Shown piece by piece: positions 1,728 to 29,229 of a stretch of 41,328 nt of DNA; position 1 is the stretch's first letter, and every line of letters starts with the position of its first letter. Origin of the DNA: Pseudomonadota bacterium. GTDB lineage: Bacteria; Pseudomonadota; Gammaproteobacteria; UBA4575. Made by a program: the position numbers and the translations under genes. The notes below the pieces were generated by a model. That model made no database searches. It saw only the letters and a list, made by a program, of their open reading frames with translations, and was not told the DNA's origin. The DNA lies in contig VXPJ01000002.1 in NCBI GenBank assembly GCA_009839635.1, positions 1 through 41,328 of the forward strand. Direction: 5' to 3'.

Positions 1728-2078
1728 TCAGCTCATGACAAGCTCGGTTAGTGTCATGTCACCCGAAGTGTCAATGTCGAGGGCCTGAATCCCAGGCATC
1801 CTGTCCACGATGTAGGCTGCCATCAGCCCTACAGTTGCCGTTCTCTCCTGCTGTATCGCGGTCAGCATCTTGTCAGCCGCAATCTGGCAGCGTTGCAGGT
1901 CGTTGGGACAATCCACCCAGGTACGGCTCATTTGCCAGCCCCGGTCCATATCCGAATCCATTTTCTGGAATATATCCTGAGCGTCCTGCGTCATTTCATG
2001 ATCGACGCGCAGGGAAAAGGTTTTCTCATCGATTGTGACTTTCAGTATCATCGGGTAGTTTTCGCAGACTTGTTGCAT
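1728..2078 (-). CDS. Hypothetical protein, 116 aa (107 aa if it starts at the ATG at 2051).
   Basis: Clean ORF on the same strand as dsrL and immediately upstream of it. I recognise no motif. The start is ambiguous and neither candidate has a clear SD. Confidence 0.45.
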   Translation of the reverse strand: MQQVCENYPMILKVTIDEKTFSLRVDHEMTQDAQDIFQKMDSDMDRGWQMSRTWVDCPNDLQRCQIAADKMLTAIQQERTATVGLMAAYIVDRMPGIQALDIDTSGDMTLTELVMS

Positions 2079-2109
2079 GTCAATGCGACCAGCACCGAGT
2101 ATTCAAAGA

Positions 2110-2778
2110 ATGGTGATACAAGTCAAACATGTTCTCGGCGACCAGGAACTTCATCAGGTACGTGAATTGCTGGCCAGTGCAAAATTCCAGGACGGCAGAC
2201 TTTCTGCCGGGCTTTCTGCCCGGCAGGTGAAAAACAACGAAGAGGTCTGTAGCAAACAAACGGTTTCAGAGCTTAACCACATTGTGATGGGCAATCTGGT
2301 ACGCCATCCCGAGTATAAGATTGCGGCACTCCCACACCGCATTGCGGTGCCCTTTTACGTGCGGTACGGCAAGGGCATGGCGTATGGAGAACACATGGAC
2401 GATCCTGTGATGGGAGAGGAAAACCGGTATCGCTCGGATATTGCCATTACCGTATTTTTGAATTCGCCCGATGAATACGAAGGCGGGGAACTGGTGATTA
2501 GCACGCCCTTTGGACGTCAGCCGATCAAGTGCCCGGCGGGTGACGCCGTGTTGTATCCTGCCTCGACACGTCATCAGGTGATCCCGGTAACGAGCGGTGA
2601 GCGTCTGGTGGCTGTGACTTGGGTGCAGAGCCTGGTGCGAAGCTACGAACAACGCGACCTGCTTTATCAACTCGGCAAGGCCCGTGAGAAAATGTTGCGC
2701 AAGGCCCCTGATTCCGAGGATAGCCGACGCATTGACAACGTGTACCTCAACCTAGTGCGCATGTGGAGTGCAGTCTGA
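2110..2778 (+). CDS. Fe(II)/2-oxoglutarate-dependent PKHD-type hydroxylase (PiuC/YbiX family).
   Basis: Collinear with E. coli YbiX as I recall it: MVIQVKHVL..., ...GRLSAG...QVKNNEE..., HMDDP (HxD), ITVFLNSPDEYEGGELVI, PAGDAVLYPASTRHQV (distal His), RLVAVTWVQS. The track ORF starts at 2077; the ATG at 2110 matches the family N-terminus. Confidence 0.8.
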   Translation: MVIQVKHVLGDQELHQVRELLASAKFQDGRLSAGLSARQVKNNEEVCSKQTVSELNHIVMGNLVRHPEYKIAALPHRIAVPFYVRYGKGMAYGEHMDDPVMGEENRYRSDIAITVFLNSPDEYEGGELVISTPFGRQPIKCPAGDAVLYPASTRHQVIPVTSGERLVAVTWVQSLVRSYEQRDLLYQLGKAREKMLRKAPDSEDSRRIDNVYLNLVRMWSAV

Positions 2779-2910: not shown

Positions 2911-3114
2911 CTAGGGTTTGGAGCCTACTTCCTCGTGAGCATCGTCCACCACATCCATGGCGACCTTCGAATACTCTTCTTTGAAGCCGTCGAGCTCTGA
3001 CCCTTTCTCTGGCAGCCAATAGCTTTCGGCCGTCAATTTCCCGCTTTGCTCGAGTTCTATGAATTTCTTTTGCATCTCAAGCAGTTTCTGGATCTTTTCC
3101 TGTTTGGAACTCAC
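2911..3114 (-). CDS. Hypothetical small acidic protein, 67 aa.
   Basis: ORF MSSKQEKIQKLLEMQKKFIELEQSGKLTAESYW...VVDDAHEEVGSKP. It lies on the same strand as, and downstream of, the Cas6-like/DsrC-like genes. The family is unrecognised. Confidence 0.4.
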   Translation of the reverse strand: MSSKQEKIQKLLEMQKKFIELEQSGKLTAESYWLPEKGSELDGFKEEYSKVAMDVVDDAHEEVGSKP

Positions 3115-3225: not shown

Positions 3226-3567
3226 TCAATACCCGCCCTTGCGCCGGCTCTCGGGTAACCCGCCAATACGACCTGCCTGCTTGCTGGGGTTTCCAGGAAA
3301 CAGGTCGTACAGGACCTTGGCATTCAATTTCTTTTCTCCCCAGGCCTTGGCCATGGCCTTGGCCATGTTCCGGGTATTGGGCAGGTTTTCGTTGTTGTGG
3401 ATGAACTCATCCCTGAGGTAATTGATGACGTCCCAGTGCCGGTCTGTCAGCTCAAGACCTTCCTGCTGGGCAATTATGCTCGCCACCTCTTCGCTCCAGT
3501 CTCCAATGTCAACCAGAAAACCGGAGTCCGTTGTTTCGATTTCCTTACCATCAATGTTAATTGCCAT
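3226..3567 (-). CDS. DsrC/TusE-family protein lacking both conserved cysteines (113 aa).
   Basis: Aligns along its length with the bona fide DsrC at 9363-9695: GFLVDIGDWSEEVA / GYLANLNDWQPELA; DRHWDVINYLRDEF / ENHWEVINFLRSYY; LYDLFPGNPSKQAGRIGGLP / LYELFPYGPAKQACKYAGLP. It ends ...ESRRKGGY instead of ...KPTGCV. I chose the ATG at 3567 because AGGAG lies 7 nt upstream; the track ORF extends to 3663. Confidence 0.8.
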   Translation of the reverse strand: MAINIDGKEIETTDSGFLVDIGDWSEEVASIIAQQEGLELTDRHWDVINYLRDEFIHNNENLPNTRNMAKAMAKAWGEKKLNAKVLYDLFPGNPSKQAGRIGGLPESRRKGGY

Positions 3568-3631
3568 AACTTCACTCCTCACCTGACAATTCTTGCTTGC
3601 CTTTATGTCAGCAGTTAACTCAACAGTGGTT

Positions 3632-4321
3632 TTATTTTTCCTGTGACTGCCGGACTGCGTCAATACCCTTATGAGGTAGGAACAGGCCGCAGCCCACTTT
3701 GCGGCCCGGGCCTAGGCCGTGTTGCTGCAGGTGAATGGACTCTTCTTTCTCCAGGCTGTCAATCATCAAGCTGCGTGTAGCCAGATTGTCCCCGGGCATC
3801 CGCAGCACGTGTGCCCGTCCGCTCATCATTTTCCTGGCATGTATGCCCTGGTCCCTCAGCAGCCTGTCCGCCTGGTCCAGGAAGGCTGCCTCGTCGGTGA
3901 GATGATCCGTAACAATGTAGCGCGCGAAAATCGTGGTCTGTGAAGAAAGCAATTTCTCGTGGGGTTGGCTCAGGATCAGTTCATGAGCACCGACCTGCAT
4001 CCTTCTGCCTGCAAGCTGCTTGGCCTCGGGGATCCGGTGTTTTGGCAGTCTCAGCATGAAACGCGTGCGGCGGGACAAGCTCAGTAACGCATCCGGTTCC
4101 TGCGGCCTGATCCAGCCATTCCCCGACTCGGCCCCGTGGATCAGGTGGATCCCGGCCTGGGTCTCTTCTGTCATCCAGGTCAGTTCAGCCTGAATGGCCC
4201 TGTAAAGGTCATAGGCATGGTCCAGCGGCAATTGCTTGCACTGTACCTTGAATGACAAATCGATGACATCGTCCGGTACGACGTACTGCTTGCCCTTGTC
4301 TTCTCGATCCTGCCAGTACAT
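3632..4321 (-). CDS. Cas6/Cmx6-like RAMP-superfamily protein (orphan; no CRISPR or other cas genes in the window).
   Basis: The C-terminus carries an exact Cas6 glycine-rich loop of the form G-h-G-x5-G-h-G: GLGPGRKVGCG, followed by LFLPHK. The N-terminus reads VIDLSFKVQCKQLPLDHAYDLYRAIQ, which resembles my recollection of the Cmx6 (type I-MYXAN Cas6) signature. At ~230 aa it fits a two-RRM Cas6. The start at 4321 lies 7 nt after the upstream stop; the track ORF runs to 4516 through a low-complexity extension. Confidence 0.55.
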   Translation of the reverse strand: MYWQDREDKGKQYVVPDDVIDLSFKVQCKQLPLDHAYDLYRAIQAELTWMTEETQAGIHLIHGAESGNGWIRPQEPDALLSLSRRTRFMLRLPKHRIPEAKQLAGRRMQVGAHELILSQPHEKLLSSQTTIFARYIVTDHLTDEAAFLDQADRLLRDQGIHARKMMSGRAHVLRMPGDNLATRSLMIDSLEKEESIHLQQHGLGPGRKVGCGLFLPHKGIDAVRQSQEK

Positions 4322-4328
4322 TGCAGGG

Positions 4329-4505
4329 CTAGTCGGGGATTTTATTGGCCGCGGTGAATACCGATTCCAGGATGTCTTCCCAGTTTTCGGGAGTGTCATG
4401 AAAAGGAGGGCGCACATCCATGCGAAAGAACCGTTCCTCCTTCTGTGCGTGCTCGCCGATCTTTTCCTTGAGTTCCTCAAATGACTGCAGCTCGTGGTGC
4501 TGCAT
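4329..4505 (-). CDS. Small acidic hypothetical protein, ~58 aa (alternative starts at 4529 and 4532).
   Basis: MQHHELQSFEELKEKIGEHAQKEERFFRMDVRPPFHDTPENWEDILESVFTAANKIPD. It is tightly packed, starting 7 nt after the TauD-like stop and ending 7 nt before the Cas6-like start. No family recognised. Confidence 0.4.
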   Translation of the reverse strand: MQHHELQSFEELKEKIGEHAQKEERFFRMDVRPPFHDTPENWEDILESVFTAANKIPD

Positions 4506-4512
4506 GAGGATC

Positions 4513-5520
4513 TCACTCAGCCACAACATCATCGGTGTGCCGCATGTCGTTCGCGAGGTCGGGTCTGGCCACACGTTCATAAAAGCGGGCCCGGTACAGC
4601 AGGCGATTCGAGCGGGGTTTATCAGAAAACATGATTCGATTATGCAGCACATTGTTGCAAATCACACCCTCACCACTTTGCAGACGGTGGCTGAACTGGT
4701 ATGGGTTGTCATCGAGGATATCCAGCAAGGTGGACCTTGCCCGCGCGCATGCCTGACTGTCTTTCCACTGGATGTTGCGGGTACGGGCGGTATAGCGCGT
4801 GTATAAGGTCTGTGTGGGCCCGTCAATCAAAAACACGGGCCCGGTTGTCTCAAGATCCGGCCGTTCACTGTTTTCAGGATTGGGAGGGATCGTCATGACT
4901 TCGGGGTCCATCAGGGCCTCGATGTGTTCCGGGTCATGATCGCGCAGCAGGATGTAAAGGATTTCAGGGTCCAGGTAGGTGTTTTCACCGCCGCTCTTGG
5001 CAGGGCGCACACAATGCATCAAAAATGCCCGGATGCGTTGTGTATCTTGGTTGTAATAGCCGTCGGTGTGCCAGTTCAGCGGCTTGTTCGTGTACGGAAT
5101 GTACGAGCTTCCAGGCCCTTTGGGCAAGGCCTGTATGGATGAAATCCGATCCCGGTCTGCGCAAAAGTTGGCATCCATGTGGATCAGGCCCAACTGCCTG
5201 GCAAGGGCGGTGACAATGTTTTTGTCCTGCACATCGTCACGCCTGGTCCTGTAGATGGCGAGATTGGTCTTCTCGCACATCTGCAACAAGCTGTCTTTTT
5301 CTTCCTGGGTCAGCTGGCAGGGGTTTTGGATGTCCACGATCAGCTGTTCCGTACGGGCCGGGTAGTTCCTGAGTTTGCGTGCCCGCCATTGGCGGTATGC
5401 GTTGGTGTTTTCAAGTAAGAACTGCTGCATGGGCTGGCGAGCACAGAAATGATCCGAGGGAGAAGGGAAAAGACTGTGCGACTGTGTGTGGACCCCCGTG
5501 CGAAATAATGCCTGAGACAC
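4513..5520 (-). CDS. TauD/TfdA-family Fe(II)/2-oxoglutarate dioxygenase.
   Basis: NWHTDGYY (HxD facial triad), distal NNVLHNR, and LYRARF near the C-terminus, in a ~300-aa protein. The longest ORF starts at the GTG at 5520; the ATG at 5430 (MQQFLLEN...) is an alternative start. Confidence 0.65.
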   Translation of the reverse strand: MSQALFRTGVHTQSHSLFPSPSDHFCARQPMQQFLLENTNAYRQWRARKLRNYPARTEQLIVDIQNPCQLTQEEKDSLLQMCEKTNLAIYRTRRDDVQDKNIVTALARQLGLIHMDANFCADRDRISSIQALPKGPGSSYIPYTNKPLNWHTDGYYNQDTQRIRAFLMHCVRPAKSGGENTYLDPEILYILLRDHDPEHIEALMDPEVMTIPPNPENSERPDLETTGPVFLIDGPTQTLYTRYTARTRNIQWKDSQACARARSTLLDILDDNPYQFSHRLQSGEGVICNNVLHNRIMFSDKPRSNRLLYRARFYERVARPDLANDMRHTDDVVAE

Positions 5521-5667
5521 TTGTGGTTTAGCTTAATGTTATCGACCTGATAAATCCTATCTCTATCGGGATAACCTGCTTTTGGGTTCGCCCCCCATGG
5601 AGGGGATTTTGTCCTCTAGGTCCTGCTTCTAGACTCATCAAGGTATGTTTAGAACCTTTAGGCTTCT

Positions 5668-5760: not shown

Positions 5761-7023
5761 ATGGCCGATACGCATCATCCCACTCCTATGCTTGATGACC
5801 TGGAAAAGGGTCCGTGGCCGAGTTTCGTTTCCGGTATCAAGCGTCTGCGCGACAAACATGACGATGAACGGGTCCGGGGCGTGGCCAACTCCTTGCTGGG
5901 CCAGCTGGAACACTCCTACGAGACGCGCAAAGGTTACTGGAAGGGCGGTACGGTTTCGGTGTTCGGGTATGGCAGCGGAATCATTCCTCGTTTTTCCGAG
6001 GTGGGTTCGGCGTTTCCCGAATCCAAGGAGTTCCACACCCTGAGGGTTCAGCCCCCTGCAGGAAACTATTACACGACGGACATGCTGCGACAGCTTGGAT
6101 CAAGCTGGGAGAAATGGGGTTCCGGGCTGGTGACCTTTCATGGGCAAACCGGGAACATCATGTTCATCGGTGCCACGACGGAGAACACGCAGCACTTTTT
6201 TGATGAGATCAATGATTACGGATGGGACCTAGGAGGTGCAGGGCCCTGCGTGCGTACTGGACAGTCCTGTGTAGGCTCGGCGCGGTGCGAGATGTCCAAT
6301 GCGGACGAAATGAAAATTCACCGAACCCTGCTCAATAACTTCACCGACGATGTCCATCGTCCTGCATTACCCTACAAGTTCAAATTCAAGGTATCCGGAT
6401 GCCCGAACGACTGCATGAATTCGATCGAGCGGTCGGACTTCTCCATTATCGGCACGTGGCGTGACGACATGAAAGTGGATCAGGACGAAGTCAAGAAATT
6501 CGTGAAACGCAAGGGTCGCCAGTATGTGATCGATAACGTGATTACTAGGTGTCCGACCAAGGCCCTTACCCTGAAAGATGATGACACTCTGGAGGTCAAC
6601 AACGAGGACTGCGTTCGTTGCATGCACTGCCTGAACGTGATGGTGAAAGCCTTGTCGCCGGGAGATGACCGGGGAGTCACCATACTCATAGGGGGCAAGC
6701 GTACCCTCAAGATCGGTGACCTGATGGGAACCGTGGTCGTGCCGTTCATGAAGCTCGACACCGAAGAGGATTACGAGAGACTGGTCGAGATAGCCGAGGA
6801 AACCATTGATTTCTGGGCAGAGAACGGTCTGGAGCATGAGCGATGCGGGGAAATGATCGAGCGCATCGGTCTTGTCAATTTCCTGGAAGGGATCGGCATT
6901 GAAGTGGATCCCAACATGGTCAACGAGCCGCGTCAGAGTTCCTATCTGCGTACTGACGGCTGGGATGAAGAAGCCGAGAAGTGGTTCCAGAGGAAGGCCG
7001 AGCAGCAGGCGGCTGCAGGCTAA
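5761..7023 (+). CDS. dsrA: Dissimilatory sulfite reductase alpha subunit (oxidative/reverse type by context).
   Basis: 420 aa with a PTPMLDDLEKGPWPSFV N-terminus, KGYWKGG, the siroheme/[4Fe-4S] cysteines CVGSARCE...CPNDC, and the ferredoxin insert CPTKAL...CVRCMHC. dsrB follows. Confidence 0.95.
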   Translation: MADTHHPTPMLDDLEKGPWPSFVSGIKRLRDKHDDERVRGVANSLLGQLEHSYETRKGYWKGGTVSVFGYGSGIIPRFSEVGSAFPESKEFHTLRVQPPAGNYYTTDMLRQLGSSWEKWGSGLVTFHGQTGNIMFIGATTENTQHFFDEINDYGWDLGGAGPCVRTGQSCVGSARCEMSNADEMKIHRTLLNNFTDDVHRPALPYKFKFKVSGCPNDCMNSIERSDFSIIGTWRDDMKVDQDEVKKFVKRKGRQYVIDNVITRCPTKALTLKDDDTLEVNNEDCVRCMHCLNVMVKALSPGDDRGVTILIGGKRTLKIGDLMGTVVVPFMKLDTEEDYERLVEIAEETIDFWAENGLEHERCGEMIERIGLVNFLEGIGIEVDPNMVNEPRQSSYLRTDGWDEEAEKWFQRKAEQQAAAG

Positions 7024-7087: not shown

Positions 7088-8161
7088 ATGGCGCAGCAGC
7101 ATCGCCCACCCATTGAGTCAGGTTGCCCGGACGGATTCCAGTACATGCATCCTGTGATGCGTAAAAATTACGGGGCCTGGGATTACCATGAGCACCCGCG
7201 TCCAGGCGTTCTGCTGCATGTGGCTGAAAACGGGGATCGCATCTGGACTGTGCGTGCAGGAACGCAGCGCATCCTGGACGTTTTCACCCTGCGCACGCTC
7301 TGTGAGATTGGCGACGAATTTGCGGAAGGTTACGTGCGCTTTACGATCCGCAGCAATATCGAATACATGGTGGCGGATGGCTCCAAAGTCCAGCCGCTGA
7401 TCGATGCCCTGGAGACGGAAGGTTTCGTGGTTGGTGGAACGAAGAATTCCGTGGCCATGATTTCACATACCCAAGGCTGGCTGCATTGTGATATTCCCGG
7501 TACGGATGCCTCCGGCGTGGTCAAGGCCATGATGGACGAATTGATCGATGAGTTCCGCGAGAACAACATGCCCAACCGGGTACACATCACGACCTCCTGT
7601 TGCCAGATCAATTGTGGTGGCCAGGGGGATATTGCGATCAATGTACAGCACACCAAGCCGCCGAAAATCAACCATGATCTGGTCTCCAATGTTTGTGAGC
7701 GCCCGTCCGTTGTGGCACGTTGCCCGGTGGCTGCGATTCGCCCCGCACAGGTGAACGGCAAGCCGTCACTTGAAGTCGACGAGAAAAAATGCATTTGCTG
7801 CGGGGCCTGTTACCCGCCTTGTCCGCCCATGCAGATCAATGATGCCGAGCACAGCCAGCTTGCGATCTGGGTGGGAGGCAATCACAGTAATGCACGCGGC
7901 AAGCCCACCTTCCAGAAGCTGGTGGCAGCGGGTATTCCCAACAATCCGCCGCGCTGGCCGGAAGCGACCGCAGTGGTCAAGCAAATCCTGCGGGCCTACC
8001 GTGATGGTGCCAGGGACTGGGAGCGTATCAATGACTGGATTGAACGTATCGGCTGGCCACGGTTTTTTGAGAGCACGGGACTTCCCTTTACCAAATTCCA
8101 CATCGATAACTGGCGTGGTGCGCGCAGGAGCCTGAATTCTTCGGCTCATATCCGTTTCTAG
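7088..8161 (+). CDS. dsrB: Dissimilatory sulfite reductase beta subunit.
   Basis: 357 aa with TSCCQINCGGQGD, CPVAAIRP and CICCGACYPPCP ferredoxin-domain motifs. Position is right after dsrA. Confidence 0.95.
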   Translation: MAQQHRPPIESGCPDGFQYMHPVMRKNYGAWDYHEHPRPGVLLHVAENGDRIWTVRAGTQRILDVFTLRTLCEIGDEFAEGYVRFTIRSNIEYMVADGSKVQPLIDALETEGFVVGGTKNSVAMISHTQGWLHCDIPGTDASGVVKAMMDELIDEFRENNMPNRVHITTSCCQINCGGQGDIAINVQHTKPPKINHDLVSNVCERPSVVARCPVAAIRPAQVNGKPSLEVDEKKCICCGACYPPCPPMQINDAEHSQLAIWVGGNHSNARGKPTFQKLVAAGIPNNPPRWPEATAVVKQILRAYRDGARDWERINDWIERIGWPRFFESTGLPFTKFHIDNWRGARRSLNSSAHIRF

Positions 8162-8176
8162 GCATGAGGGCGCAGT

Positions 8177-8569
8177 GTGAAGTTTGGAATTGTGATCAAT
8201 GAAGGACCGTACACGCACCAAGCATCTGATTCGGCCCTTCAATTTGTAAAAGCTGCCCTGCACAAGGGGCATGAGATCTTCCGGGTCTTTTTCTATCACG
8301 ACGGAGTCAACAACGGCACCAGCCTTGGCGTGCCGCCCCAGGATGACCGCAATCTCACCTTGGAATGGTCAGGCCTGGCCGAAAAGCATGACTTGGACCT
8401 GGTTGTGTGTGTGGCTGCCGCGCAGCGCCGAGGGATTCTCGATGAAGATGAAATGGGGCGACATGGCAAAAGCGCAAACAATCTGGCACCGGGCTTTCGT
8501 ATCTCAGGTCTGGGGCAACTCATCGAAGCCGGGATTCAGGCAGACCGTCTGGTCACATTCGGAGACTGA
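8177..8569 (+). CDS. dsrE: Sulfurtransferase DsrE (DsrEFH complex).
   Basis: 130 aa, GTG start. MKFGIVINEGPY..., with the active-site cysteine context DLVVCVAAAQRRG. Gene order is dsrEFH. Confidence 0.9.
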   Translation: MKFGIVINEGPYTHQASDSALQFVKAALHKGHEIFRVFFYHDGVNNGTSLGVPPQDDRNLTLEWSGLAEKHDLDLVVCVAAAQRRGILDEDEMGRHGKSANNLAPGFRISGLGQLIEAGIQADRLVTFGD

Positions 8570-8587
8570 TTTTCTAGGGGATGTCTG

Positions 8588-9007
8588 ATGGAAAACGGCG
8601 AGGGTGTAGTTAAGAAATTCTGTTATATCAACCGCAAGGCCCCATACGGAACAATCTATGCGCTGGAATCCCTGGAGGTCGTGCTTATCGCGGCCGCGTT
8701 CGACCAGGATATTAGCCTTGTGTTTGCAGATGACGGCGTATACCAGCTCACCAAGGGACAGGACACCGACGGCATCGGCATGAAGAACTTTTCCAAGACC
8801 TACACGGCACTCGGGGACTACGACATCAAGAAGGTGTATGTTGAGAAGGAGTCTCTGGAAGAACGCGGCTTGTCTGCCGAGGATCTTCAGGCGCTGAAAT
8901 ACGAGGATGAGGACGATGACTGGGCAGAAAAGGACTCGCTGTTTGTCATCGGCCGCGAAGAGATGGCCAAAATCATTGATGAACAGGATGTGATACTGAG
9001 TTTCTGA
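8588..9007 (+). CDS. dsrF: DsrF (DsrEFH complex).
   Basis: 139 aa with a DsrE/F-fold N-terminus KKFCYINRKAPYGTIYALESLEV. It has an acidic insertion, YEDEDDDWAEKD. Position is between dsrE and dsrH. Confidence 0.85.
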   Translation: MENGEGVVKKFCYINRKAPYGTIYALESLEVVLIAAAFDQDISLVFADDGVYQLTKGQDTDGIGMKNFSKTYTALGDYDIKKVYVEKESLEERGLSAEDLQALKYEDEDDDWAEKDSLFVIGREEMAKIIDEQDVILSF

Positions 9008-9362: not shown

Positions 9363-9695
9363 ATGCCTTTAGAAGTAAATGGCAAGTCCTTTGAGACTGA
9401 TGAAGAAGGGTATTTGGCCAACCTGAATGACTGGCAACCGGAACTGGCAGATGCGATGGCGGAGGCGGACGGTGCCGAGCTGGGGGAAAATCACTGGGAG
9501 GTGATTAACTTTCTGCGCTCGTACTATGAAGAGTACCAGATTGCTCCCGCAGTGCGTGTCCTGACCAAGGCAATTGGCAAGAAACTGGGCAAGGACAAGG
9601 GTAACAGCAAGTATTTGTACGAGTTGTTTCCTTACGGCCCTGCGAAGCAGGCGTGTAAGTATGCGGGCCTGCCCAAGCCGACGGGTTGCGTGTAG
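9363..9695 (+). CDS. dsrC: DsrC, the sulfur-carrier / DsrAB substrate protein.
   Basis: 110 aa ending KQACKYAGLPKPTGCV. Both the penultimate cysteine and the cysteine 10 residues upstream are present. Confidence 0.95.
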   Translation: MPLEVNGKSFETDEEGYLANLNDWQPELADAMAEADGAELGENHWEVINFLRSYYEEYQIAPAVRVLTKAIGKKLGKDKGNSKYLYELFPYGPAKQACKYAGLPKPTGCV

Positions 9696-10545: not shown

Positions 10546-12099
10546 ATGGCTGCTGCAGAATTTGAAACTCCGAAGATCAGGGAGTATCCGATAATTCCCC
10601 GTTTGCAGGAAGGTGTCATGGCGCACAGCAAGCCGTTTGTTGCCAAGCCTGACTTCCAGGAAAAACTCGGCTATCCGGGTGAACTGGTCGATAACTGGAA
10701 AGAAGTTGCCATTGAAAAGATGGGCGAACTCACGGGCAAGTACCGTTCGCTGCAGGTATTTCTGGATTCCTGCGTCAAGTGTGGCGCCTGTACGGACAAG
10801 TGCCACTACTACCTGGGCACGACTGACCCAAAAAACATGCCGGTGGCACGCCAGGATTTGTTCCGCAAAGTGTACCGGCGCTACTACACGCTTTCCGGCA
10901 AGCTATTTCCAAAGCTTGTGGGCGCCGAGGACTTGACCGAGGAAGTCCTGGATGACTGGTACAGCTATTTTCATCAATGTTCACAGTGCAGGCGGTGTTC
11001 CGTGTATTGTCCCTACGGAATTGACACTGCAGAAATCTCCATGGCCGCACGTGAGGTCATGGATGCTGTAGGCAAGGGACAGAAATACTGCAATGAAATC
11101 ATCGGCAAGGTCCACGTGATAGGCAACAATCTGGGCCTGCCGGAACCGGCCCTGGCGGACACGCTGGAAGGTCTGGAAGAGGACGTTGAAGAGGAAACCG
11201 GTGTTCAGGTCCGCTTCCCCCTGGATGAGAAGGGCGCCGAAGTGCTGCTGGTAACCCCGTCTGCCGATTTTTTTGCAGAGCCACATATTGACGGGCTGAT
11301 CGGTTACGCAAAAGTGTTTCATCAGGCAGGCATATCCTGGACGCTGAGTTCCTATGCCAGTGAGGCTGCAAACTTTGGCATGTTCATTGGCAGCTATGAG
11401 AACATGCAAAAACTCGCCTTGCGGATTCGCCAGGCTGCACTGGACCTGGGTGTGAAGCGGATTGTATTTGGCGAATGCGGGCATGCCTGGCGGGTGGCCT
11501 ATTCTTTTTTGAACACCCTGGCTGGCCCCTTTGACTTCCTTGATCCGGATTATCCTGTACCACAGCATATCTGCGAGGTAACGCACAGCCTGATCCAGCA
11601 AGGGAAGCTAACCCTTGACCCGTCACAAAATGACGACATGGTGCTCACCTACCATGATTCCTGCAATGTGGCACGTGCATCCCGTATGGGAGACAGGCCG
11701 GGCGGCCAGTTTGAAATCCCGAGAGAGGTGATCAGGTCCGTATGCAACCACTATGTGGACATGCCAAGCTACTCCATTGGTGAAGGCACCTATTGCTGCG
11801 GCGGCGGCGGAGGATTGCTGACCGATGACTTGATTGAGTTGCGTGTCAAAGGCGCATTGCCGCGTATGGAAGCCCTCAAGAATGTTGTCGATGATTACGG
11901 CGTGACCCACATGGCAGCGATGTGTGCGATCTGCAAAAGCCAGTTTTCCAAAGTGTTCCCGTACTATGATTTCCAGATGGATCAGGTCGTCAGCGTGCAC
12001 CAGCTCGTGGGCAATGCGATCGTGCTGCAGCCTGAAGAGGAAAATCGGTCAGAGGCAGATCAATCAGAGGAAGCGCAGGATCAGGCTGAAGCTGCCTGA
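10546..12099 (+). CDS. dsrK: DsrK, an HdrD-like Fe-S protein with CCG domains.
   Basis: CVKCGACTDKC and CSQCRRCSVYCP ferredoxin motifs, a CCG motif (GTYCCGGGGG), and CAICK. It has an acidic C-terminal tail. Confidence 0.9.
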   Translation: MAAAEFETPKIREYPIIPRLQEGVMAHSKPFVAKPDFQEKLGYPGELVDNWKEVAIEKMGELTGKYRSLQVFLDSCVKCGACTDKCHYYLGTTDPKNMPVARQDLFRKVYRRYYTLSGKLFPKLVGAEDLTEEVLDDWYSYFHQCSQCRRCSVYCPYGIDTAEISMAAREVMDAVGKGQKYCNEIIGKVHVIGNNLGLPEPALADTLEGLEEDVEEETGVQVRFPLDEKGAEVLLVTPSADFFAEPHIDGLIGYAKVFHQAGISWTLSSYASEAANFGMFIGSYENMQKLALRIRQAALDLGVKRIVFGECGHAWRVAYSFLNTLAGPFDFLDPDYPVPQHICEVTHSLIQQGKLTLDPSQNDDMVLTYHDSCNVARASRMGDRPGGQFEIPREVIRSVCNHYVDMPSYSIGEGTYCCGGGGGLLTDDLIELRVKGALPRMEALKNVVDDYGVTHMAAMCAICKSQFSKVFPYYDFQMDQVVSVHQLVGNAIVLQPEEENRSEADQSEEAQDQAEAA

Positions 12100-12142: not shown

Positions 12143-12631
12143 TTGAAAAGGATCCCCGCCCACCGTTTGCTGTTCAGCCTTGCTGGTATTGCAGCTGTCT
12201 GCATGCTCATGTTCGGGACCGTTGCAGCTGGCCCGGAAAACATCCCGCCACCCAAGGCAAAATACGATGAAGATACTCTTTGTGTGGAGCCTGTTGAGAT
12301 CATGCGAAGACAGCATTTCGAATACATCCTCGACCACAGGGACCGGACAGTGATCGAAGGAATCCGCACAAAAAAGCACAGCCTGATCGGTTGCATTGAC
12401 TGCCACATCACGCCGAACGACGAGGGAGTTTATGCGCGCTATTCGCAAGAGACACACTTTTGCGCAAGCTGCCATCAATTTGCCGCGGTGCGTATCGATT
12501 GCTTCCAGTGTCATGCCGACCGTCCTGCAGAAGCGATACGCGAGGCACTAAAGCCGGACCAGCATGCACGACGGCCTGTGCAGGAACTTCTTGAGACTCT
12601 ACAGTTCAGCACTGCTGTCTTCACCAAATGA
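12143..12631 (+). CDS. dsrJ: DsrJ, a periplasmic trihaem cytochrome c.
   Basis: Three CxxCH motifs (CIDCH, CASCH, CFQCH) and a signal-anchor-like N-terminus. The TTG start is uncertain. Confidence 0.85.
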   Translation: MKRIPAHRLLFSLAGIAAVCMLMFGTVAAGPENIPPPKAKYDEDTLCVEPVEIMRRQHFEYILDHRDRTVIEGIRTKKHSLIGCIDCHITPNDEGVYARYSQETHFCASCHQFAAVRIDCFQCHADRPAEAIREALKPDQHARRPVQELLETLQFSTAVFTK

Positions 12632-12652: not shown

Positions 12653-13411
12653 ATGCGCGATACACTCGATACAACTGAGGAAATCAGCACCGGGCGGCGG
12701 CAATTCACACAGGGTGTGGCAGCCTTGGGAGGACTGGCCATTGCTCCAGGTGTCTTTCTGTATCACGCCGCAGGTGCGAAGCCCGATGACCAGGCTGTAA
12801 GCAGCCAGCAGCGCTGGGGCATGCTGGTCAATACGAATAACTGTCATGAAGAATGCGACGCGTGTGTGACTGCTTGCAATGAGGAAAACGGCGTGTGGAG
12901 CCTGGGCCGTCCGGAAACCGACGCCCAGTGGATTCGCAAGCTGAATGTCAGGGACAGGCAGACCGGCCACGTTACATCCATGCCGATGATGTGTCAGCAT
13001 TGCGAACACCCCCCGTGTGTTGACGTATGCCCGACCCGCGCCTCCTTCCGCCGAGAAGACGGAATTGTACTGGTCAACAAGCACACCTGTATCGGTTGCC
13101 GATATTGCATGATGGCATGCCCCTACAAGGCGCGTTCCTTCATCCACGAGCCGTTACAGGATCAATTGCCTCATTCGCCCCGGGGCAAGGGATGTGTGGA
13201 AAGCTGTACTCTGTGCGTGCACAAGGTGGACCAGGGAGACAACACTACGGCCTGTGCCGAGGCCTGTGCGGAAGAAGGGCATGAGGCACTCTTGTTTGGC
13301 GACCTGAACGATCCTGAAAGCGAAATATCAAAACGGCTGGAAAAATACGGCGGCACGCAGATCCGTGCAGACCTGGGACTCAACACAGGAGTCCGCTACC
13401 AGGGAATTTGA
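12653..13411 (+). CDS. dsrO: DsrO, a periplasmic 4Fe-4S ferredoxin-like subunit exported by Tat.
   Basis: Twin-arginine motif GRRQFTQGVAALGG, plus CQHCEHPPCVDVCP, CIGCRYCMMACP and CTLCVHK. Confidence 0.9.
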   Translation: MRDTLDTTEEISTGRRQFTQGVAALGGLAIAPGVFLYHAAGAKPDDQAVSSQQRWGMLVNTNNCHEECDACVTACNEENGVWSLGRPETDAQWIRKLNVRDRQTGHVTSMPMMCQHCEHPPCVDVCPTRASFRREDGIVLVNKHTCIGCRYCMMACPYKARSFIHEPLQDQLPHSPRGKGCVESCTLCVHKVDQGDNTTACAEACAEEGHEALLFGDLNDPESEISKRLEKYGGTQIRADLGLNTGVRYQGI

Positions 13412-13431
13412 GATGAGCTTTCCGAAAACCC

Positions 13432-14667
13432 GTGATACCGAGTAAGGCTGCAGGCATGGAAACCGCCCGTTTCAGCACCATCCACGCAAATTCCGTTCAG
13501 TACTGGATCTTGCTGGGCACGCTGGTTCTCGGCGCGCTGGTCGGATACTTGGCCGCACATCACATGGATGTGGAAGGGCACCACATCACCGGCATGAGCA
13601 ACCAGATTGTGTGGGGCTTCCCGCATGTAGCTGCGGTCTTTTTGATCGTGGCTGCTTCCGGTGCACTCAATGTGGCGTCCATCTCCTCCGTATTCGGGAA
13701 AGTGGACTACAAGCCGCTTGCGCGGTTGTCTGCTCTCCTTGCAATTGCACTGCTGGTGGGCGGGCTGGTAATACTGGTTCTGGACCTGGGTCGACCGGAT
13801 CGCTTGATCATTGCCATGACGGTCTACAACTTCAAGTCCATCTTTGCCTGGAATATCTTTTTGTATGTGGGCTTCATTTTCATCACCGCGATATATTTGT
13901 GGATGATGATGGAAAGAAAAATGAACCGGTTTTCCAAGCCGGCCGGATTTACCGCATTCATCTGGAGACTGATCCTTACGACAGGTACCGGGTCAATTTT
14001 CGGGTTCCTGGTGGCACGTCAGGCATACGATGCAGCCATCATGGCACCGTTGTTTATCATCATGTCGTTTGCCTTTGGCCTTGCAGTTTTCATCCTGGTA
14101 CTGCAGGCAAGCTATGCATGGACGCAGCGCCACCTTGGTGATGCCATCCTGCACAAGCTCAGGGTCCTGCTGGGAGTTTTCGTCGCTTCGGTATTCTATT
14201 TCGTTCTGGTATACCACCTGACGAACCTGTATGCCACGGAGCATCATGGCGTCGAGCGCTTTATCCTGGTTGATGGCGGTATCTACACGTTCCTGTTCTG
14301 GGTGGTCCAGATGCTGTTTGGTTGTGTGGTGCCGCTTGTGCTGGTTTTCATAAGGCCGTTCAGTCAGTCAAGACATATGATCTCGCTGGCGGCTTTGCTG
14401 GTGATTGTGGGAGGACTTGCCCAGTTGTATGTGATCATTATCGGCGGCCAAGCCTACCCTCTAGTACTCTTCCCAGGCATGGAGGAAAGCAGCAGTTTTT
14501 TTGATGGCGTGGTCGCGCAGTATGCCCCCAGCATTTTTGAGATCCTGCTTGGTGTGGGAGGAATCTGCCTGTCATTGGCCATCGTTACGGTGGGCATTGC
14601 CGTGCTTGAGTTTCTGCCCGAAAGTCTGTCGGACAAGGCGCTCAAACTGGAATCCGTGACCCCATAG
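13432..14667 (+). CDS. dsrP: DsrP, an NrfD/PsrC-like integral membrane subunit.
   Basis: 411 aa and highly hydrophobic, with about 10 helices. It follows dsrO. Start is either the GTG at 13432 or the ATG at 13456. Confidence 0.85.
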   Translation: MIPSKAAGMETARFSTIHANSVQYWILLGTLVLGALVGYLAAHHMDVEGHHITGMSNQIVWGFPHVAAVFLIVAASGALNVASISSVFGKVDYKPLARLSALLAIALLVGGLVILVLDLGRPDRLIIAMTVYNFKSIFAWNIFLYVGFIFITAIYLWMMMERKMNRFSKPAGFTAFIWRLILTTGTGSIFGFLVARQAYDAAIMAPLFIIMSFAFGLAVFILVLQASYAWTQRHLGDAILHKLRVLLGVFVASVFYFVLVYHLTNLYATEHHGVERFILVDGGIYTFLFWVVQMLFGCVVPLVLVFIRPFSQSRHMISLAALLVIVGGLAQLYVIIIGGQAYPLVLFPGMEESSSFFDGVVAQYAPSIFEILLGVGGICLSLAIVTVGIAVLEFLPESLSDKALKLESVTP

Positions 14668-16458: not shown

Positions 16459-16715
16459 GGATGCCGGGTTACTCTGGCGGTAGACTCACTTCACAAATCA
16501 ATGTGCCTTCGAACGTGCACGACCTGACCCGCGTAAAGTAAAAAATCTCTTGAGCGGTTTGCTTCCCGTTTGAACTTGATTTTCCTGACTTGAACCCCAG
16601 CTGAAAGATCTTCGTGTAATCCTTGGGTCGCGCGTTGACTGGGTGTCGGCTTTTGTTCAGCATAAAGTCCTAATACTGGTAAAGTAGCAGTCAGCGATAA
16701 CGCATACGACCCAAT

Positions 16716-18122
16716 GTGATGAACTCCATTCCCGGGATTGCGGAGTCTAGAATGTATTCGGATGTCAAATTGACGGAGTTTTTGACCACGCTACACATGT
16801 GGACCCAAAAAATTCGTGCCGGCGAACTTGCTGCACGCATCCCCGTTTTCCCCGAGTCAGAATTGTCCGAGTTGAGTCAGGATATCAACTTTGTTGCAGA
16901 GATGCTGGAGTCGCTGTCCAGAGATGCAGAGATCCAACTGCAGCGGCACACAGAACACATCGCACGCAAAAACAAGTCGCAGAAAACGCTGTATGACGTG
17001 GTCACAAGTATCAATATGTCACGCAACGTGCACGAACTGCTCACTCATTTTTTGCATACCATGAAGGAACTGGTAGATGCACGCGGGGCAGTTGTTTTTC
17101 TTGAAACGAAAAAGAACACCTATTCGCTAATCGCGGGGACCGGTATTGAGTCGACTCTCAAGGACAAACCTCCATTTTTGCCCGAGAGCATGGCCGATTC
17201 GAATGAGCAACAAACGGTTCCTATCCGGGTAGTGGCTTGTCCCTTGCAGATCAGCCGAGCCATTTTTGACGGCGAAAGACTTTCAGTGCTGGTTATTCCA
17301 TTGCAGTATCGTGGCAAGGTTCTGGGCGTATACAACCTGTACATCGAAGAGGACAAATTCAAAAATGATGGAGAGAATAGAGAGTTATTTACCAGCATGG
17401 GGCGTCACCTCGGCATCGCTGTAGAAAAAGCCCGCCTTGATGAAGAAGCCAAAGCCCTGTCTATCATGCGTGAAAGAACCAACATTGCCAACGAGCTGCA
17501 CGACTCACTTGCACAGACGCTGGCAAGTATCCGGTACCAGGTGCGGGTGCTGGATGAAACGATCCACCAGGGAGATGAGGCTGCGGCCTGGCAGGAGCTG
17601 GAACGCATAGAATCCACCATTGACGAGGCACATACAGAGTTGCGTGCACTCATTGCACATTTTCGACTGCCCATTGGCGAGCGCAGCCTCACCGTGTCTG
17701 TAGAGCAAGTCATTGAGCGGTTCAAACAAGACAGCGATGACATACAGGTATATCTGCAAAAAGAATGGCCGGACACCATGCTGCCGCCGCAGATCGAGTT
17801 GCAGGTACTGCGTGTGATCCAGGAAGCCCTCACCAATGTTCGCAAGCACAGTGAGGCAGGTACAGTGCGTGTACTCATGCGAGGTGACGGAGAGGGTCAC
17901 TATGCCGTTCTGGTTGAAGACGATGGCATCGGGATCACCGACCTTCAAAAACAAAACCCCGCCGGTGAACATGTTGGTATCAGTGTCATGCAGGACCGGG
18001 CTAACCGGATTGGTGGTACACTAACCGTGGATGGAGAACCGGGTGAAGGTGTACAGGTCCGCTTCGAATTTGATTACTTGCCGGATGGCGCACAAGAGAG
18101 TGTCCAGCACGAAATGGTGTGA
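16716..18122 (+). CDS. Soluble sensor histidine kinase with HAMP, GAF, HisKA_3 and HATPase domains (NarX/NarQ-like core).
   Basis: No transmembrane segment. HAMP-like stretch LTEFLTTLHMWTQKIRAGELAARIPVFPESELSELSQDINFVAEML. A GAF-sized middle region. H-box ERTNIANELHDSLAQTL, N-box EALTNVRKHS, and G-boxes VEDDGIGI and GEHVGISVMQDRA. Confidence 0.8.
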   Translation: MMNSIPGIAESRMYSDVKLTEFLTTLHMWTQKIRAGELAARIPVFPESELSELSQDINFVAEMLESLSRDAEIQLQRHTEHIARKNKSQKTLYDVVTSINMSRNVHELLTHFLHTMKELVDARGAVVFLETKKNTYSLIAGTGIESTLKDKPPFLPESMADSNEQQTVPIRVVACPLQISRAIFDGERLSVLVIPLQYRGKVLGVYNLYIEEDKFKNDGENRELFTSMGRHLGIAVEKARLDEEAKALSIMRERTNIANELHDSLAQTLASIRYQVRVLDETIHQGDEAAAWQELERIESTIDEAHTELRALIAHFRLPIGERSLTVSVEQVIERFKQDSDDIQVYLQKEWPDTMLPPQIELQVLRVIQEALTNVRKHSEAGTVRVLMRGDGEGHYAVLVEDDGIGITDLQKQNPAGEHVGISVMQDRANRIGGTLTVDGEPGEGVQVRFEFDYLPDGAQESVQHEMV

Positions 18123-18132
18123 GTCCTGAATC

Positions 18133-18876
18133 ATGGTTTCCAATATGAAGCTGCGCATTATTGTCATTGACGACCACACCTTGTTTCGTGAAGGGTTGCA
18201 GAGCCTGTTAAGTCGACACGGAATCGAGGTCGTTGCCTCGGTCAGTGATGGGCAGGAGGGTATCAGGCGGGCCCAGGAGCTTAAAAAGCAGCTGAAAGAA
18301 GCCAAGGAAAGTGGTGGGCAAGAGGAAATTAGAGCAGCCCAAGAGCAGCAGCCCGACATCGTGTTGCTGGACATGCGGATGCCTGGGATGTCTGGCCTCG
18401 ATGTGCTCAAACAGCTCCAGCACCTGAAATTTGGTGTTCCGGTTGTCATGTTGACGACCAGTGGTGATGAACGCGATTTGGTGGAAGCCTTACGCAATGG
18501 TGCCAAGGGTTATCTGCTGAAGGACATGGAGCCCGACAAAGTGGTTGCTGCGTTGCGCGAGATTGTCCGGGGCGAAACTGTTGTTGCACCGAATCTGGCC
18601 CAGATTCTGGCAAAGGTTGTCAAGGGAGAGGATCCTCTCGAATCCGAAATCAGCCCACTGGACAGCTTGACTCCACGCGAGCGCGAAATCTTGAGTCTAT
18701 TGGCTGAAGGTCAGAGCAACAAGGTCATCGCCAGAAACCTGGGCATTTCGGATGGCACGGTCAAGCTCCACGTCAAGGCCATTTTAAGAAAGCTGAACAT
18801 CCATTCGCGTGTGGAGGCGGCAGTGATTGCAGTGGAGCAGGGGCTTCGGGCTAAGAAAACATACGCGAGCAACTAG
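18133..18876 (+). CDS. NarL/FixJ-family response regulator (REC domain plus LuxR-type HTH).
   Basis: REC motifs IVIDDH, VLLDMRMPGMSG and MLTTSGD. The HTH region reads LTPREREILSLLAEGQSNKVIARNLGISDGTVKLHVKAILRKL. The alternative start at 18145 gives MKLRIIV. Confidence 0.9.
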   Translation: MVSNMKLRIIVIDDHTLFREGLQSLLSRHGIEVVASVSDGQEGIRRAQELKKQLKEAKESGGQEEIRAAQEQQPDIVLLDMRMPGMSGLDVLKQLQHLKFGVPVVMLTTSGDERDLVEALRNGAKGYLLKDMEPDKVVAALREIVRGETVVAPNLAQILAKVVKGEDPLESEISPLDSLTPREREILSLLAEGQSNKVIARNLGISDGTVKLHVKAILRKLNIHSRVEAAVIAVEQGLRAKKTYASN

Positions 18877-18927
18877 AGATCCCCATTTTCAGGCAACACC
18901 TGCCGGATTTTCTGGAAACGGATACCC

Positions 18928-19407
18928 GTGAAGACATTCAAGCAGCTTGTTTCCGAGCACGAAAGGCTGATTGATGAAATCATGCCCTGGGACCTTGAGC
19001 AGAAGCTTTCAGGCGATCATCAACCCCTGGTTCTGGATATCCGCGAACCCGAAGAGTTTGCCGCAATGCATATTGCCTGGTCTGTCAATGTGCCCAGGGG
19101 AATCCTGGAGGCCGCGTGCGACTATGGCTATAGCGAGACCCTGCCTGTACTTGCTGGAGCCCGGGCAAGGGAAGTCGTAGTGGTCTGCCGGTCCGGCAAT
19201 CGCAGTGTGCTGGCGGCCTACACCATGCAGCTGATGGGCTATAAAAATGTTGTTTCGTTGAAAACGGGCCTGAAGGGGTGGAACGACTATGAGCAGCCTC
19301 TGGTTGACCAGGACCACGAGAAGGTGGACCAAGATCGTGCAGAAGTATTTCTCAGTCCCAAGGTCGAAGCTGAACAGCAGCGGGTACTGCAACCAGAAGA
19401 AGGCTGA
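18928..19407 (+). CDS. Single-domain rhodanese-like sulfurtransferase.
   Basis: Active-site loop VVCRSGNRS and a rhodanese fold context (LVLDIREPEEF...GWN). GTG start. Confidence 0.8.
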   Translation: MKTFKQLVSEHERLIDEIMPWDLEQKLSGDHQPLVLDIREPEEFAAMHIAWSVNVPRGILEAACDYGYSETLPVLAGARAREVVVVCRSGNRSVLAAYTMQLMGYKNVVSLKTGLKGWNDYEQPLVDQDHEKVDQDRAEVFLSPKVEAEQQRVLQPEEG

Positions 19408-19427
19408 CCCGAATACGGTTTTCAGCC
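19402..19427. terminator. Hairpin spanning the stop codons of the two convergent genes; a possible bidirectional terminator.
   Basis: GGCTGA (19402-19407) pairs with TCAGCC (19422-19427) across a 14-nt loop. The stem is 6 bp and there is no clear U-tract. Confidence 0.2.
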
Positions 19428-19775
19428 GTAGTGCTTGTGGTCCTTACGGCGTACCCCTGAGCGCTGGACGATGACACCCCGGATCGCTTCGATCCCGGGA
19501 ACCTCTATTTCTTCATACCCCTCATTCAGAGCTCTCAGCACGTAGCGGCTATCTTCGATGACCAGCTGACGGAAAATATATTCTCCGTCGACCATGGCCA
19601 GCACGTAGCAGCCACTTTCCACAGCTGCCGCCGAATCAATGATGATGATGTTTCCGTCCCTGAACTCGGGCTCCATGCTGTCGCCCAAGACGCGCAGGGC
19701 AAACGGCTCAGAATTGGCGCATCCGCCATGATCGGCGAGGTCAGCCTGCAGGGGGATGTCTTCTGGATCAGCCAT
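19422..19775 (-). CDS. S24-family (LexA/UmuD C-terminal domain) protein without a DNA-binding domain.
   Basis: GDSMEP serine motif, then GNIIIIDSAA...GCYVLAMVDGEYIFRQL, collinear with UmuD (GDSM...VIAAVDGEFTVKKL). Start is the ATG at 19775 (117 aa) or at 19829 (135 aa). The longer track ORF to 19988 runs through the AT-rich nrdA promoter region. Confidence 0.65.
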   Translation of the reverse strand: MADPEDIPLQADLADHGGCANSEPFALRVLGDSMEPEFRDGNIIIIDSAAAVESGCYVLAMVDGEYIFRQLVIEDSRYVLRALNEGYEEIEVPGIEAIRGVIVQRSGVRRKDHKHYG

Positions 19776-19920
19776 CAGTTGATTGTATCGCGAACAAACG
19801 CAGCCATCTTGCCCTAGTCTTATGCACATCTCATTAAAAAATTTTATGAATTTGTTGTGTATAAGCCCTGAGTAATCCCTGGATAACTCACTCAACTGCT
19901 TGTGCTTGAACCTTATATCA

Positions 19921-19936
19921 ACACAATATATAGTGT
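19921..19936 (+). promoter_or_regulatory. NrdR box upstream of nrdA.
   Basis: ACACAATATATAGTGT fits the published NrdR-box consensus acaCwAtATaTwGtgt at every position. It lies ~120 bp upstream of the nrdA ATG in an AT-rich intergenic region. Confidence 0.6.
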
Positions 19937-20057
19937 GTGCAGCTACTCCTTTCATTCTATTACTCGATAAAGCTCCGAAGAGAGCCAACAGTAGGAATGA
20001 GGGGGGCTGACAAAACCAATATTTACAAGCACGTTTACCAGAGGATCAAGGGATCGG

Positions 20058-28309: not shown

Positions 28310-28312
28310 GGA

Positions 28313-29173: not shown

Positions 29174-29229
29174 GTGGCATGGTTCCTAGGGGCTGCGAGA
29201 AAAGCCGCAAGACTGGCAAATTGTCCGGT

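Follow-up and report, generated by a model that had tools for sequence, protein, structure and literature searches.

We analyzed a 41,328-nt stretch of DNA (the window), which makes up the whole of contig VXPJ01000002.1 from the UBA4575 gammaproteobacterial assembly GCA_009839635.1, and asked about the nature of a minus-strand gene at 3632–4321 whose 229-aa product resembles the CRISPR RNA-processing family Cas6 and which lies next to the dsr genes of sulfur oxidation. This gene belongs to a large, distinct clade of Cas6-fold proteins that is a conserved accessory component of the oxidative Dsr (rDsr) sulfur-oxidation locus and is independent of CRISPR-Cas. It very probably encodes a domesticated, dsr-dedicated homolog of Cas6 without a role in defense, so that energy metabolism seems to have taken over a protein from the immune system. 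We propose more tentatively, as something a little short of an even prospect, that the protein acts through an RNA-binding regulatory mechanism.

The product of 3632–4321 matched the Pfam Cas6 family PF09559 at 209 bits (E = 7e-62; cut-off 26.7) and the TIGR02807 cas6_cmx6 model at 145.8 bits (curated cut-off 98.85), and Cas6 models from PADLOC matched it at up to 203 bits. A profile built from 22 relatives matched one PDB sequence, 8fcj_B, which is the Cas6 of a type I-B CRISPR-associated transposon (CAST) Cascade (E = 2.6e-20). We then searched an AlphaFold2 (AF2) model of the protein (pLDDT 79, pTM 0.76) with Foldseek and recovered 8fcu_B and 8fcj_B (TM 0.75–0.80, E ~1e-16), followed at ranks 3–40 entirely by Cas6/Cse3 structures. 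The initial annotation, made from the sequence alone, had named profile scores and a fold comparison beforehand as the test of Cas6 membership, and both gave strong matches. Profiles and model together thus point to a genuine Cas6-fold protein, a RAMP with a predicted double ferredoxin-like architecture.

The textbook glycine-rich loop of Cas6, GLGPGRKVGCG, was correctly recognized at the outset and occupies residues 202–212. Residue conservation, counted over 141 cluster representatives of the clade, is 94–96% for the glycines of this loop and 99% for each of G69, W70, R85, R91, and E144, with R134 at 93%, K218 at 94%, and H35 at 90%. H35 is the putative catalytic histidine of what we predict may be an RNA-binding or RNA-cleaving protein. 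The matches to the gene were full-length and free of stop codons in every locus, which together with these near-invariant residues indicates that the clade is under purifying selection. Domain fusions were considered as a further clue to function and set aside, as the longer family members look like artifacts of gene calling or assembly.

No CRISPR-like array and no cas1, cas2, effector, or other cas gene is present in the 41-kb window, as scans confirmed, and none of cas3, cas8/cmx1/cmx8, cas7/devR, cas5, cas4-cas1, or cas2 lies beside the Cas6-like gene there. I-MYXAN genes were likewise absent within ±10 kb of 80 related loci and from the remote dsr-linked contexts described below, where a conserved set of dsr genes is found instead. 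A CRISPR array occurs in one of 81 sources, locus L004 (89% identity), in which 22 copies of a 36-nt repeat are followed by cas2-cas1-cas9 at 16670–20629, beyond the dsrL and DsrC-like genes and ~6 kb from the Cas6-like gene. Because this is a type II Cas9 system, and type II systems do not use Cas6, the array is unrelated to the Cas6-like protein. The same locus has a TnpB gene (12846–14111) inserted between the gene for a 116-aa protein and dsrL. When the partner genes were compared with the defense models of PADLOC, the TauD-like dioxygenase DsrQ, the small proteins, the DsrC-like protein, and a TPR-like protein gave no match; the matches at the locus were limited to the Cas6 models and a generic 2-oxoglutarate (2OG)-domain model on a PKHD oxygenase. 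We conclude that the Cas6-like clade is independent of CRISPR-Cas, and the early suggestion that this gene set is not a defense system holds across the 80 loci, none of which has a CRISPR-Cas system that uses Cas6.

Homologs of the Cas6-like protein numbered 2132 at E ≤ 1e-5, and clustering at 50% identity gave 1399 clusters at E ≤ 1e-3, of which 243 were found at E ≤ 1e-30. The clade motifs IHGAESGN and GCGLF[LMI]PHK occur in at least 560 species-representative genomes. For synteny we used the 80 best loci, all from gammaproteobacterial metagenome-assembled genomes (MAGs) and, at 48–97% identity, the closest relatives of the window gene; neighbors were counted by tblastn with the proteins of the window, and the denominators given here are the loci with a long enough contig. 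Gene order was essentially invariant across this set. A small protein is encoded upstream of the Cas6-like gene in 80/80 loci and dsrQ in 75/76, the divergent dsrA is present in 65/66, and a cysteine-less DsrC paralog follows downstream in all 75 loci that could be scored, on the same strand in 69 of them. The breadth of this arrangement beyond the 80 loci rests on a handful of remote loci looked up singly.

These remote members of the clade, with 32–45% identity, sit beside dsrA wherever the contig extends far enough. Two of them (L081 and L088) carry dsrQ, the small-protein gene, a TPR-like gene, and the Cas6-like gene, and a third (L082) carries dsrQ, the TPR-like gene, and the Cas6-like gene. 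In a Thiohalocapsa MAG (GCA_021736785.1; locus L087, 6935–9211), the small-protein, TPR-like, Cas6-like, and DsrC-like genes lie next to dsrA, and neither dsrQ nor a remnant of it was found in that locus. The locus L091 (GCA_003751635.1) is reduced further, with only a gene for a DUF6967 protein overlapping the Cas6-like gene (7789–8699), divergent from dsrA. Since L087 and L091 retain the Cas6-like gene without dsrQ, the two genes are separable; and since the Thiohalocapsa locus keeps the rest of the set without the O2-dependent DsrQ, the role of the Cas6-like protein is likely tied to Dsr rather than to DsrQ chemistry. The persistent core of the module is therefore the small protein and the Cas6-like protein beside dsrA, with dsrQ, the TPR-like gene, and the DsrC paralog varying by lineage, and the most constant companion of the Cas6-like protein is the small protein encoded immediately upstream. 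This core is more persistent than dsrQ itself. The co-occurrence of the gene set with dsr genes, which the initial annotation had named as a check, is thus borne out in both the 80 loci and the remote ones. At its edge the family may have other genomic contexts: a divergent, basic member (P0259, pI 9.3; locus L089, 8001–8654) lies near thrS and infC, behind a gene for a LysM/M23 peptidase. The 8 kb upstream of it are free of dsr genes, and the contig ends soon past the gene.

In the window, all four minus-strand genes of the module are present with the families initially assigned to them. We predict that they form a single operon, divergent from dsrAB, in the order dsrQ, small acidic protein, Cas6-like protein, and RspA-type DsrC paralog, with the TPR-like gene added between the second and third in some lineages, and that the genes are co-transcribed and translationally coupled. 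Spacings of 7 nt from the small-protein gene to the Cas6-like gene and of 64 nt from there to the DsrC-like gene agree with the initial annotation, but the 7-nt gap that it placed between dsrQ and the small-protein gene is instead a 17-nt overlap with the dsrQ stop. The difference comes from the start of the small-protein gene (4329–4529), which we place at ATG 4529 on the basis of a conserved MLWLSE start, giving a protein of 66 aa rather than the 58-aa peptide first described. The coding region of dsrQ (4513–5430) had been extended to a GTG at 5520; ATG 5430 is most likely the true start, because 5431–5520 is unconserved among relatives.

Multiple features separate the dsr-linked clade from CRISPR-linked Cmx6. 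We compared it with three Cmx6-annotated plasmid proteins, two of which (loci L084 and L085) come from complete cas6-cas3-cas8-cas7-cas5-cas4/cas1-cas2 loci on cyanobacterial plasmids. Type I-MYXAN/I-B Cmx6 thus sits among cas genes, whereas the dsr-linked clade sits beside dsrAB. Identity to the bona fide CRISPR-linked proteins is only 25–29%. The dsr-linked clade and cyanobacterial Cmx6 have in common a D-H at the start of helix 1 (H35 in the clade), an xLRxP strand (R91), and the C-terminal G-rich loop GxGxxRxxGCG, and the fold is also that of the I-B CAST Cas6 (PDB 8FCJ/8FCU). Specific to the dsr-linked clade, in contrast, are an N-terminal MYWQ(D/E) extension, R85, R134, E144, a TRSLM motif, and a PHKGI tail, as well as HxAxSGNGWxRP, an insertion of ~10 residues that contains G69 and W70 and is absent from both Cmx6 and the I-B CAST Cas6. 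Conversely, the dsr-linked clade lacks an insertion in the second domain that is seen in both of the Cmx6 proteins encoded in complete cas loci. The isoelectric point differs as well, with a median of 6.2 over 269 clade members and 7.9 for the window protein, compared to 9.3–9.6 for the three plasmid proteins. On the matter of orthology to CRISPR-linked Cmx6, a direct comparison with three sequences, rather than a phylogeny, showed low identity, clade-specific indels, and a shift in pI.

On Gloeobacter morelensis plasmid pGMOR1, a gene for a 263-aa protein annotated as Cas6/Cmx6 lies in a non-CRISPR context (L086, 5974–9237); after it come genes for a hypothetical protein, a member of the PAPS-reductase family, a cupin, and more hypothetical proteins. 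It may represent another orphan use of the Cmx6 fold.

The small acidic protein (66 aa, pI ~4.9) carries the motif FFRMDVRPPFxDTPExWEDxLE and matched no family in Pfam, NCBIfam, PADLOC, or PHROG. Homologs of it are also encoded in the remote loci L081, L083, L087, and L088. In L083 and L091, the gene just before the Cas6-like gene encodes a DUF6967 protein; we considered this protein as a possible relative of the 66-aa protein and found no detectable relationship.

In some lineages, an additional gene for a protein of ~236 aa separates the small-protein gene from the Cas6-like gene. This additional gene is absent from the window and was found in 8 of the 80 loci as well as four remote ones (for example, L053 2027–2737, L081 9222–9950, L082 8760–9479, L087 7208–7921, and L088 7238–7951). 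The protein has 4611 homologs, among them a hypothetical protein of Sulfurifustis variabilis, and its AF2 model is an all-helical, TPR-like repeat (pLDDT 88) with only weak matches to TPR, Rap, and NlpI structures. A weak Pfam match to Cse2/Cas11 (E = 0.028) raised the idea of a degenerate Cascade, which was rejected, as the AF2 model had no Cas matches. A Sel1-repeat protein is also encoded nearby in L081 and L088.

The dsrQ product belongs to the TauD/TfdA family of Fe(II)/2-oxoglutarate dioxygenases (PF02668, 73 bits). Across 79 aligned orthologs, the Fe/2OG ligands H121-x-D123...H263 and R276/R280 are at least 95% conserved, and DsrQ is thus probably an active dioxygenase; it weakly resembles TmpA, TMLD, and BBOX. 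In lying directly upstream of and divergent from dsrA and having an intact 2-His-1-carboxylate triad, the window gene corresponds to the dsrQ of aerobic chemotrophic sulfur oxidizers. The name, for the TauD-like gene divergent from dsrA, is attributed to Lenk et al. 2012 in PMC7596348, and a function in releasing sulfite from sulfonates is offered as speculative (PMC7596348, PMC9371685). The passages of those two papers that deal with dsrQ treat it as a lone gene and do not mention the small protein or the Cas6 homolog with which we predict it to be co-transcribed.

The DsrC-like protein (3226–3567; 113 aa; PF04358, 118 bits; TIGR03342, 106 bits) has no cysteine, as noted from the start, and ends in ...GLPESRRKGGY. 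Among its orthologs, 69 of 75 lack cysteine and the arm ...GLP(E/Q)(S/T)xRKGGY is conserved, as it is in the Thiohalocapsa paralog. The true DsrC of the window is encoded at 9363–9695 and ends in PTGCV. Because it lacks the C-terminal cysteine, we classify the DsrC-like protein as RspA-type rather than as DsrC or TusE. Cysteine-less DsrC paralogs near dsrQ have been called RspA-type and proposed to be regulators (PMC9371685), and the window protein has in common with them the DsrC fold family, the missing redox-active cysteines, and a position a few genes from dsrQ. It differs in its strongly conserved C-terminal arm, a hint that the arm has not simply decayed but serves in some specific docking. 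In the alphaproteobacterium Methylovirgula thiovorans, the cysteine-less paralog MHY1_00075 is three genes from the DsrQ MHY1_00078 (PMC9371685), and these gene numbers suggest that the same gene set exists there.

The dsrA–dsrQ intergenic region contains a palindrome, TATCTC-TATC-GGGATA, at 5558–5573 (consensus TAYCYC-N4-GRGRTA). Of the first 86 loci, 65 contain a match, and two of these 65 have another one at a different place; L087 and L091 contain the palindrome too. Across 64 dsrA–dsrQ intergenic regions it lies mostly ~160–300 nt upstream of the dsrA ATG. We considered whether it could be an RNA hairpin of the kind bound by Cas6. Its two halves vary independently of each other, C-A and G-T mismatches occur whichever strand is read as the transcript, and the counts at position 5 (TG 12, CG 12, TA 4, CA 6) are essentially those expected under independence; RNAalifold found no compensatory pairs in the dsrA leader or palindrome. 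The hairpin was therefore rejected, and the palindrome is better read as a putative DNA operator of the dsrA promoter region, of the type bound by a protein. Its 7-2-7 layout resembles that of NarL heptamer sites. Downstream of it on the plus strand, alignments and motif counts delimit a conserved block, CCCCATGGAGGGGATTTTG (5593–5611), and a -10-like TAGACT (5630–5635), which together (5593–5635) mark the probable dsrA promoter region. A GAF/NarQ-like kinase (16716–18122) and a NarL-like response regulator (18133–18876; 227 bits to a NarL model) are encoded after dsrN, and are a candidate two-component system for controlling the dsr promoter. L082 and L091, where the DsrC paralog is not adjacent, have the palindrome as well.

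What might a Cas6 homolog do in such a locus? The explanation that we favor, taken as a whole, is that a domesticated, non-immune Cas6 homolog works as an RNA-level regulator of sulfur-oxidation genes, and we put it forward as a working proposal whose chances fall somewhat below even. The nucleic-acid groove of Cas6 would have been retained, with its G-rich loop, the histidine at the start of helix 1, and several invariant arginines and lysines. The protein would then be a sequence- or structure-specific RNA-binding, possibly RNA-cleaving, factor that tunes the expression of sulfur-oxidation genes after transcription, forms a complex with the small acidic protein and with lineage-specific partners, and has no immune function. 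The suggestion of RNA binding follows from the hallmarks that the clade has in common with bona fide Cmx6 (DH, R91, and GxGxxRxxGCG). There is a functional analogy in Allochromatium vinosum, where DsrR and DsrS, accessory dsr-linked proteins, reportedly exert post-transcriptional control over the dsr operon and affect Dsr levels. Their folds are unrelated to Cas6 (IscA-like for one and unknown for the other), and their genes lie at its 3' end in the dsr operon. In the window the operon ends at dsrN, with the two-component system next after ~640 nt; no search aimed at dsrR or dsrS was made. In a more specific form of this idea, which we regard as possible but doubtful, a domesticated Cas6 endoribonuclease recognizes a specific cellular RNA, for example a transcript of dsr or of other sulfur-metabolism genes, and controls the expression of rDsr, or it directs DsrQ or the cysteine-less DsrC paralog to that RNA.

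Several observations weigh against RNA-level regulation. No Rfam family reached threshold in the window. Five intergenic regions (Cas6-like/DsrC-like, DsrC-like/67-aa gene, the dsrQ leader, the dsrA leader, and the convergent terminator region) folded no better than shuffled sequences (z -0.25 to +1.4), the dsrA leader showed no covariation, and repeated hairpins or direct repeats in the window were limited to families expected by chance. The cis sequence therefore gives no pointer to an RNA ligand of the Cas6-like protein, and the part of the initial annotation that proposed an RNA- or DNA-directed module did not gain support. Furthermore, the clade is acidic to neutral while CRISPR-linked Cmx6 is basic; the partners (the TPR-like helical repeat, the small acidic proteins, and the DsrC paralog) are of protein-interaction types; and the most conserved clade-specific feature, the HxAxSGNGWxRP loop, is missing from the RNA-processing relatives.

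The same observations fit a rival in which the exaptation involved protein contacts only. RNA binding would have been lost, and the Cas6-like protein would have a structural, adaptor, or ligand-binding role in an accessory complex of Dsr whose other subunits are the small acidic protein, the TPR protein, the cysteine-less DsrC paralog, and DsrQ. The GNGW loop would be its new functional site. Such a complex could possibly control or mature DsrAB or DsrC, or present substrate to the DsrQ dioxygenase. We consider this a real contender, though one that is itself short of probable. It would account for the acidic or neutral pI compared to basic CRISPR-linked relatives, the invariant G69 and W70 in an insertion absent from Cmx6 and I-B CAST Cas6, the tight translational coupling with the small protein, the TPR-like and (in L081 and L088) Sel1-repeat neighbors, and the failure to detect a cis RNA element, and the conserved ...RKGGY arm of the DsrC paralog suggests continued DsrC-like docking. 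However, the G-loop glycines, H35, and several arginines and lysines are as conserved as the new loop, which is hard to explain if the groove is unused, and pI is a crude proxy.

The regulatory role could instead be directed at DNA, with the Cas6-like protein, the DsrC-like protein, or both binding the palindrome between dsrA and dsrQ and controlling both operons, an arrangement that we consider very unlikely. The palindrome is highly conserved in most loci, and the DsrC of A. vinosum is reported to bind dsr promoter DNA, as the initial annotation pointed out. RspA-type proteins, as noted above, have been proposed to be regulators (PMC9371685). Yet the palindrome persists in L082 and L091 without an adjacent DsrC paralog, and it can be explained without either protein, given the NarL-like regulator and kinase encoded after dsrN and the NarL-like layout of the site. 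We also know of no Cas6 protein that binds double-stranded DNA. Least probable of all, and close to negligible in our estimate, is that the gene is an ordinary stand-alone cas6 serving an array or effector elsewhere in the genome, its position beside dsr being incidental. TIGR02807 does score above its curated cut-off, the NCBI name for the protein is type I-MYXAN Cas6/Cmx6, and our scan of this genome was limited to the 41-kb window, which is the whole contig. But adjacency to dsrA holds in every long-enough context from 97% down to ~32% identity, in more than 80 genomes, and none of the contexts examined has an I-MYXAN gene within ±10 kb; identity to bona fide Cmx6 is low, with clade-specific indels, and the sole nearby CRISPR system is type II.

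Of the components of this module, dsrQ and the RspA-type DsrC paralogs are already known by name; we found no mention of a Cas6 homolog of dsr loci in the searchable literature. The initial statement that the gene set lacked a functional description thus stands for the Cas6 homolog and needs correction for dsrQ and the RspA-type proteins. Because databases annotate the clade as a CRISPR protein (type I-MYXAN Cas6/Cmx6), CRISPR counts in sulfur oxidizers are inflated. The clade, present in at least 560 species genomes, would be a clear, large-scale example of a Cas6 RAMP protein that has moved out of immunity and into a housekeeping pathway, and part of the annotated Cas6/Cmx6 family would then not be CRISPR-associated at all. 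Should the protein indeed recognize RNA, it would be the first member of the Cas6 family to be dedicated to core energy metabolism. To the rDsr locus, as found in many chemotrophic and some phototrophic sulfur oxidizers, a conserved and unstudied operon is added, and the function of dsrQ can be addressed as that of a multi-protein, possibly RNA-linked module rather than of a lone sulfonate dioxygenase.

The dsr operon of the window begins on the plus strand with dsrA (5761–7023; TIGR02064, 633 bits) and dsrB (7088–8161; TIGR02066, 546 bits) and has the order dsrABEFHCMKJOPN, followed by the GAF/NarQ-like kinase, the NarL-like regulator, and a rhodanese gene. There is no dsrL between dsrK (10546–12099) and dsrJ (12143–12631). 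The sole dsrL-like gene of the window is a separate copy at 3–1523 on the minus strand, which encodes a GltD-like Fe-S flavoprotein of the NAD(P)H oxidoreductase type (NF009410, 544 bits) and whose left end is beyond the window. Many relatives (L013–L080, ~500–2100) have both dsrL copies, which are ~57% identical to each other.

The module does lie between this dsrL-like gene and dsrA, as first described, but three further genes lie between them as well. Downstream of the DsrC-like gene, a 67-aa acidic protein is encoded at 2911–3114 (minus strand), with a tblastn match in 66/72 loci and no family match. A PKHD/YbiX-type Fe(II)/2OG oxygenase follows in convergent orientation at 2077–2778 (plus strand; NF003974, 231 bits) and is present in 58/63 loci. 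Upstream of the dsrL-like gene, a 116-aa acidic protein is encoded at 1728–2078 (minus strand), conserved in 52/63 loci and without a family match. With the PKHD oxygenase and DsrQ, two O2-dependent dioxygenases are encoded beside an otherwise anaerobic-type pathway. The remainder of the window consists of housekeeping genes. At 27527–29880 on the minus strand, genes for a MbnB/TglH/ChrH (DUF692) modification enzyme, of the type that acts on ribosomally synthesized and post-translationally modified peptides (RiPPs), and for a DUF2063/NGO1945-like protein adjoin a gene for a DoxX protein.

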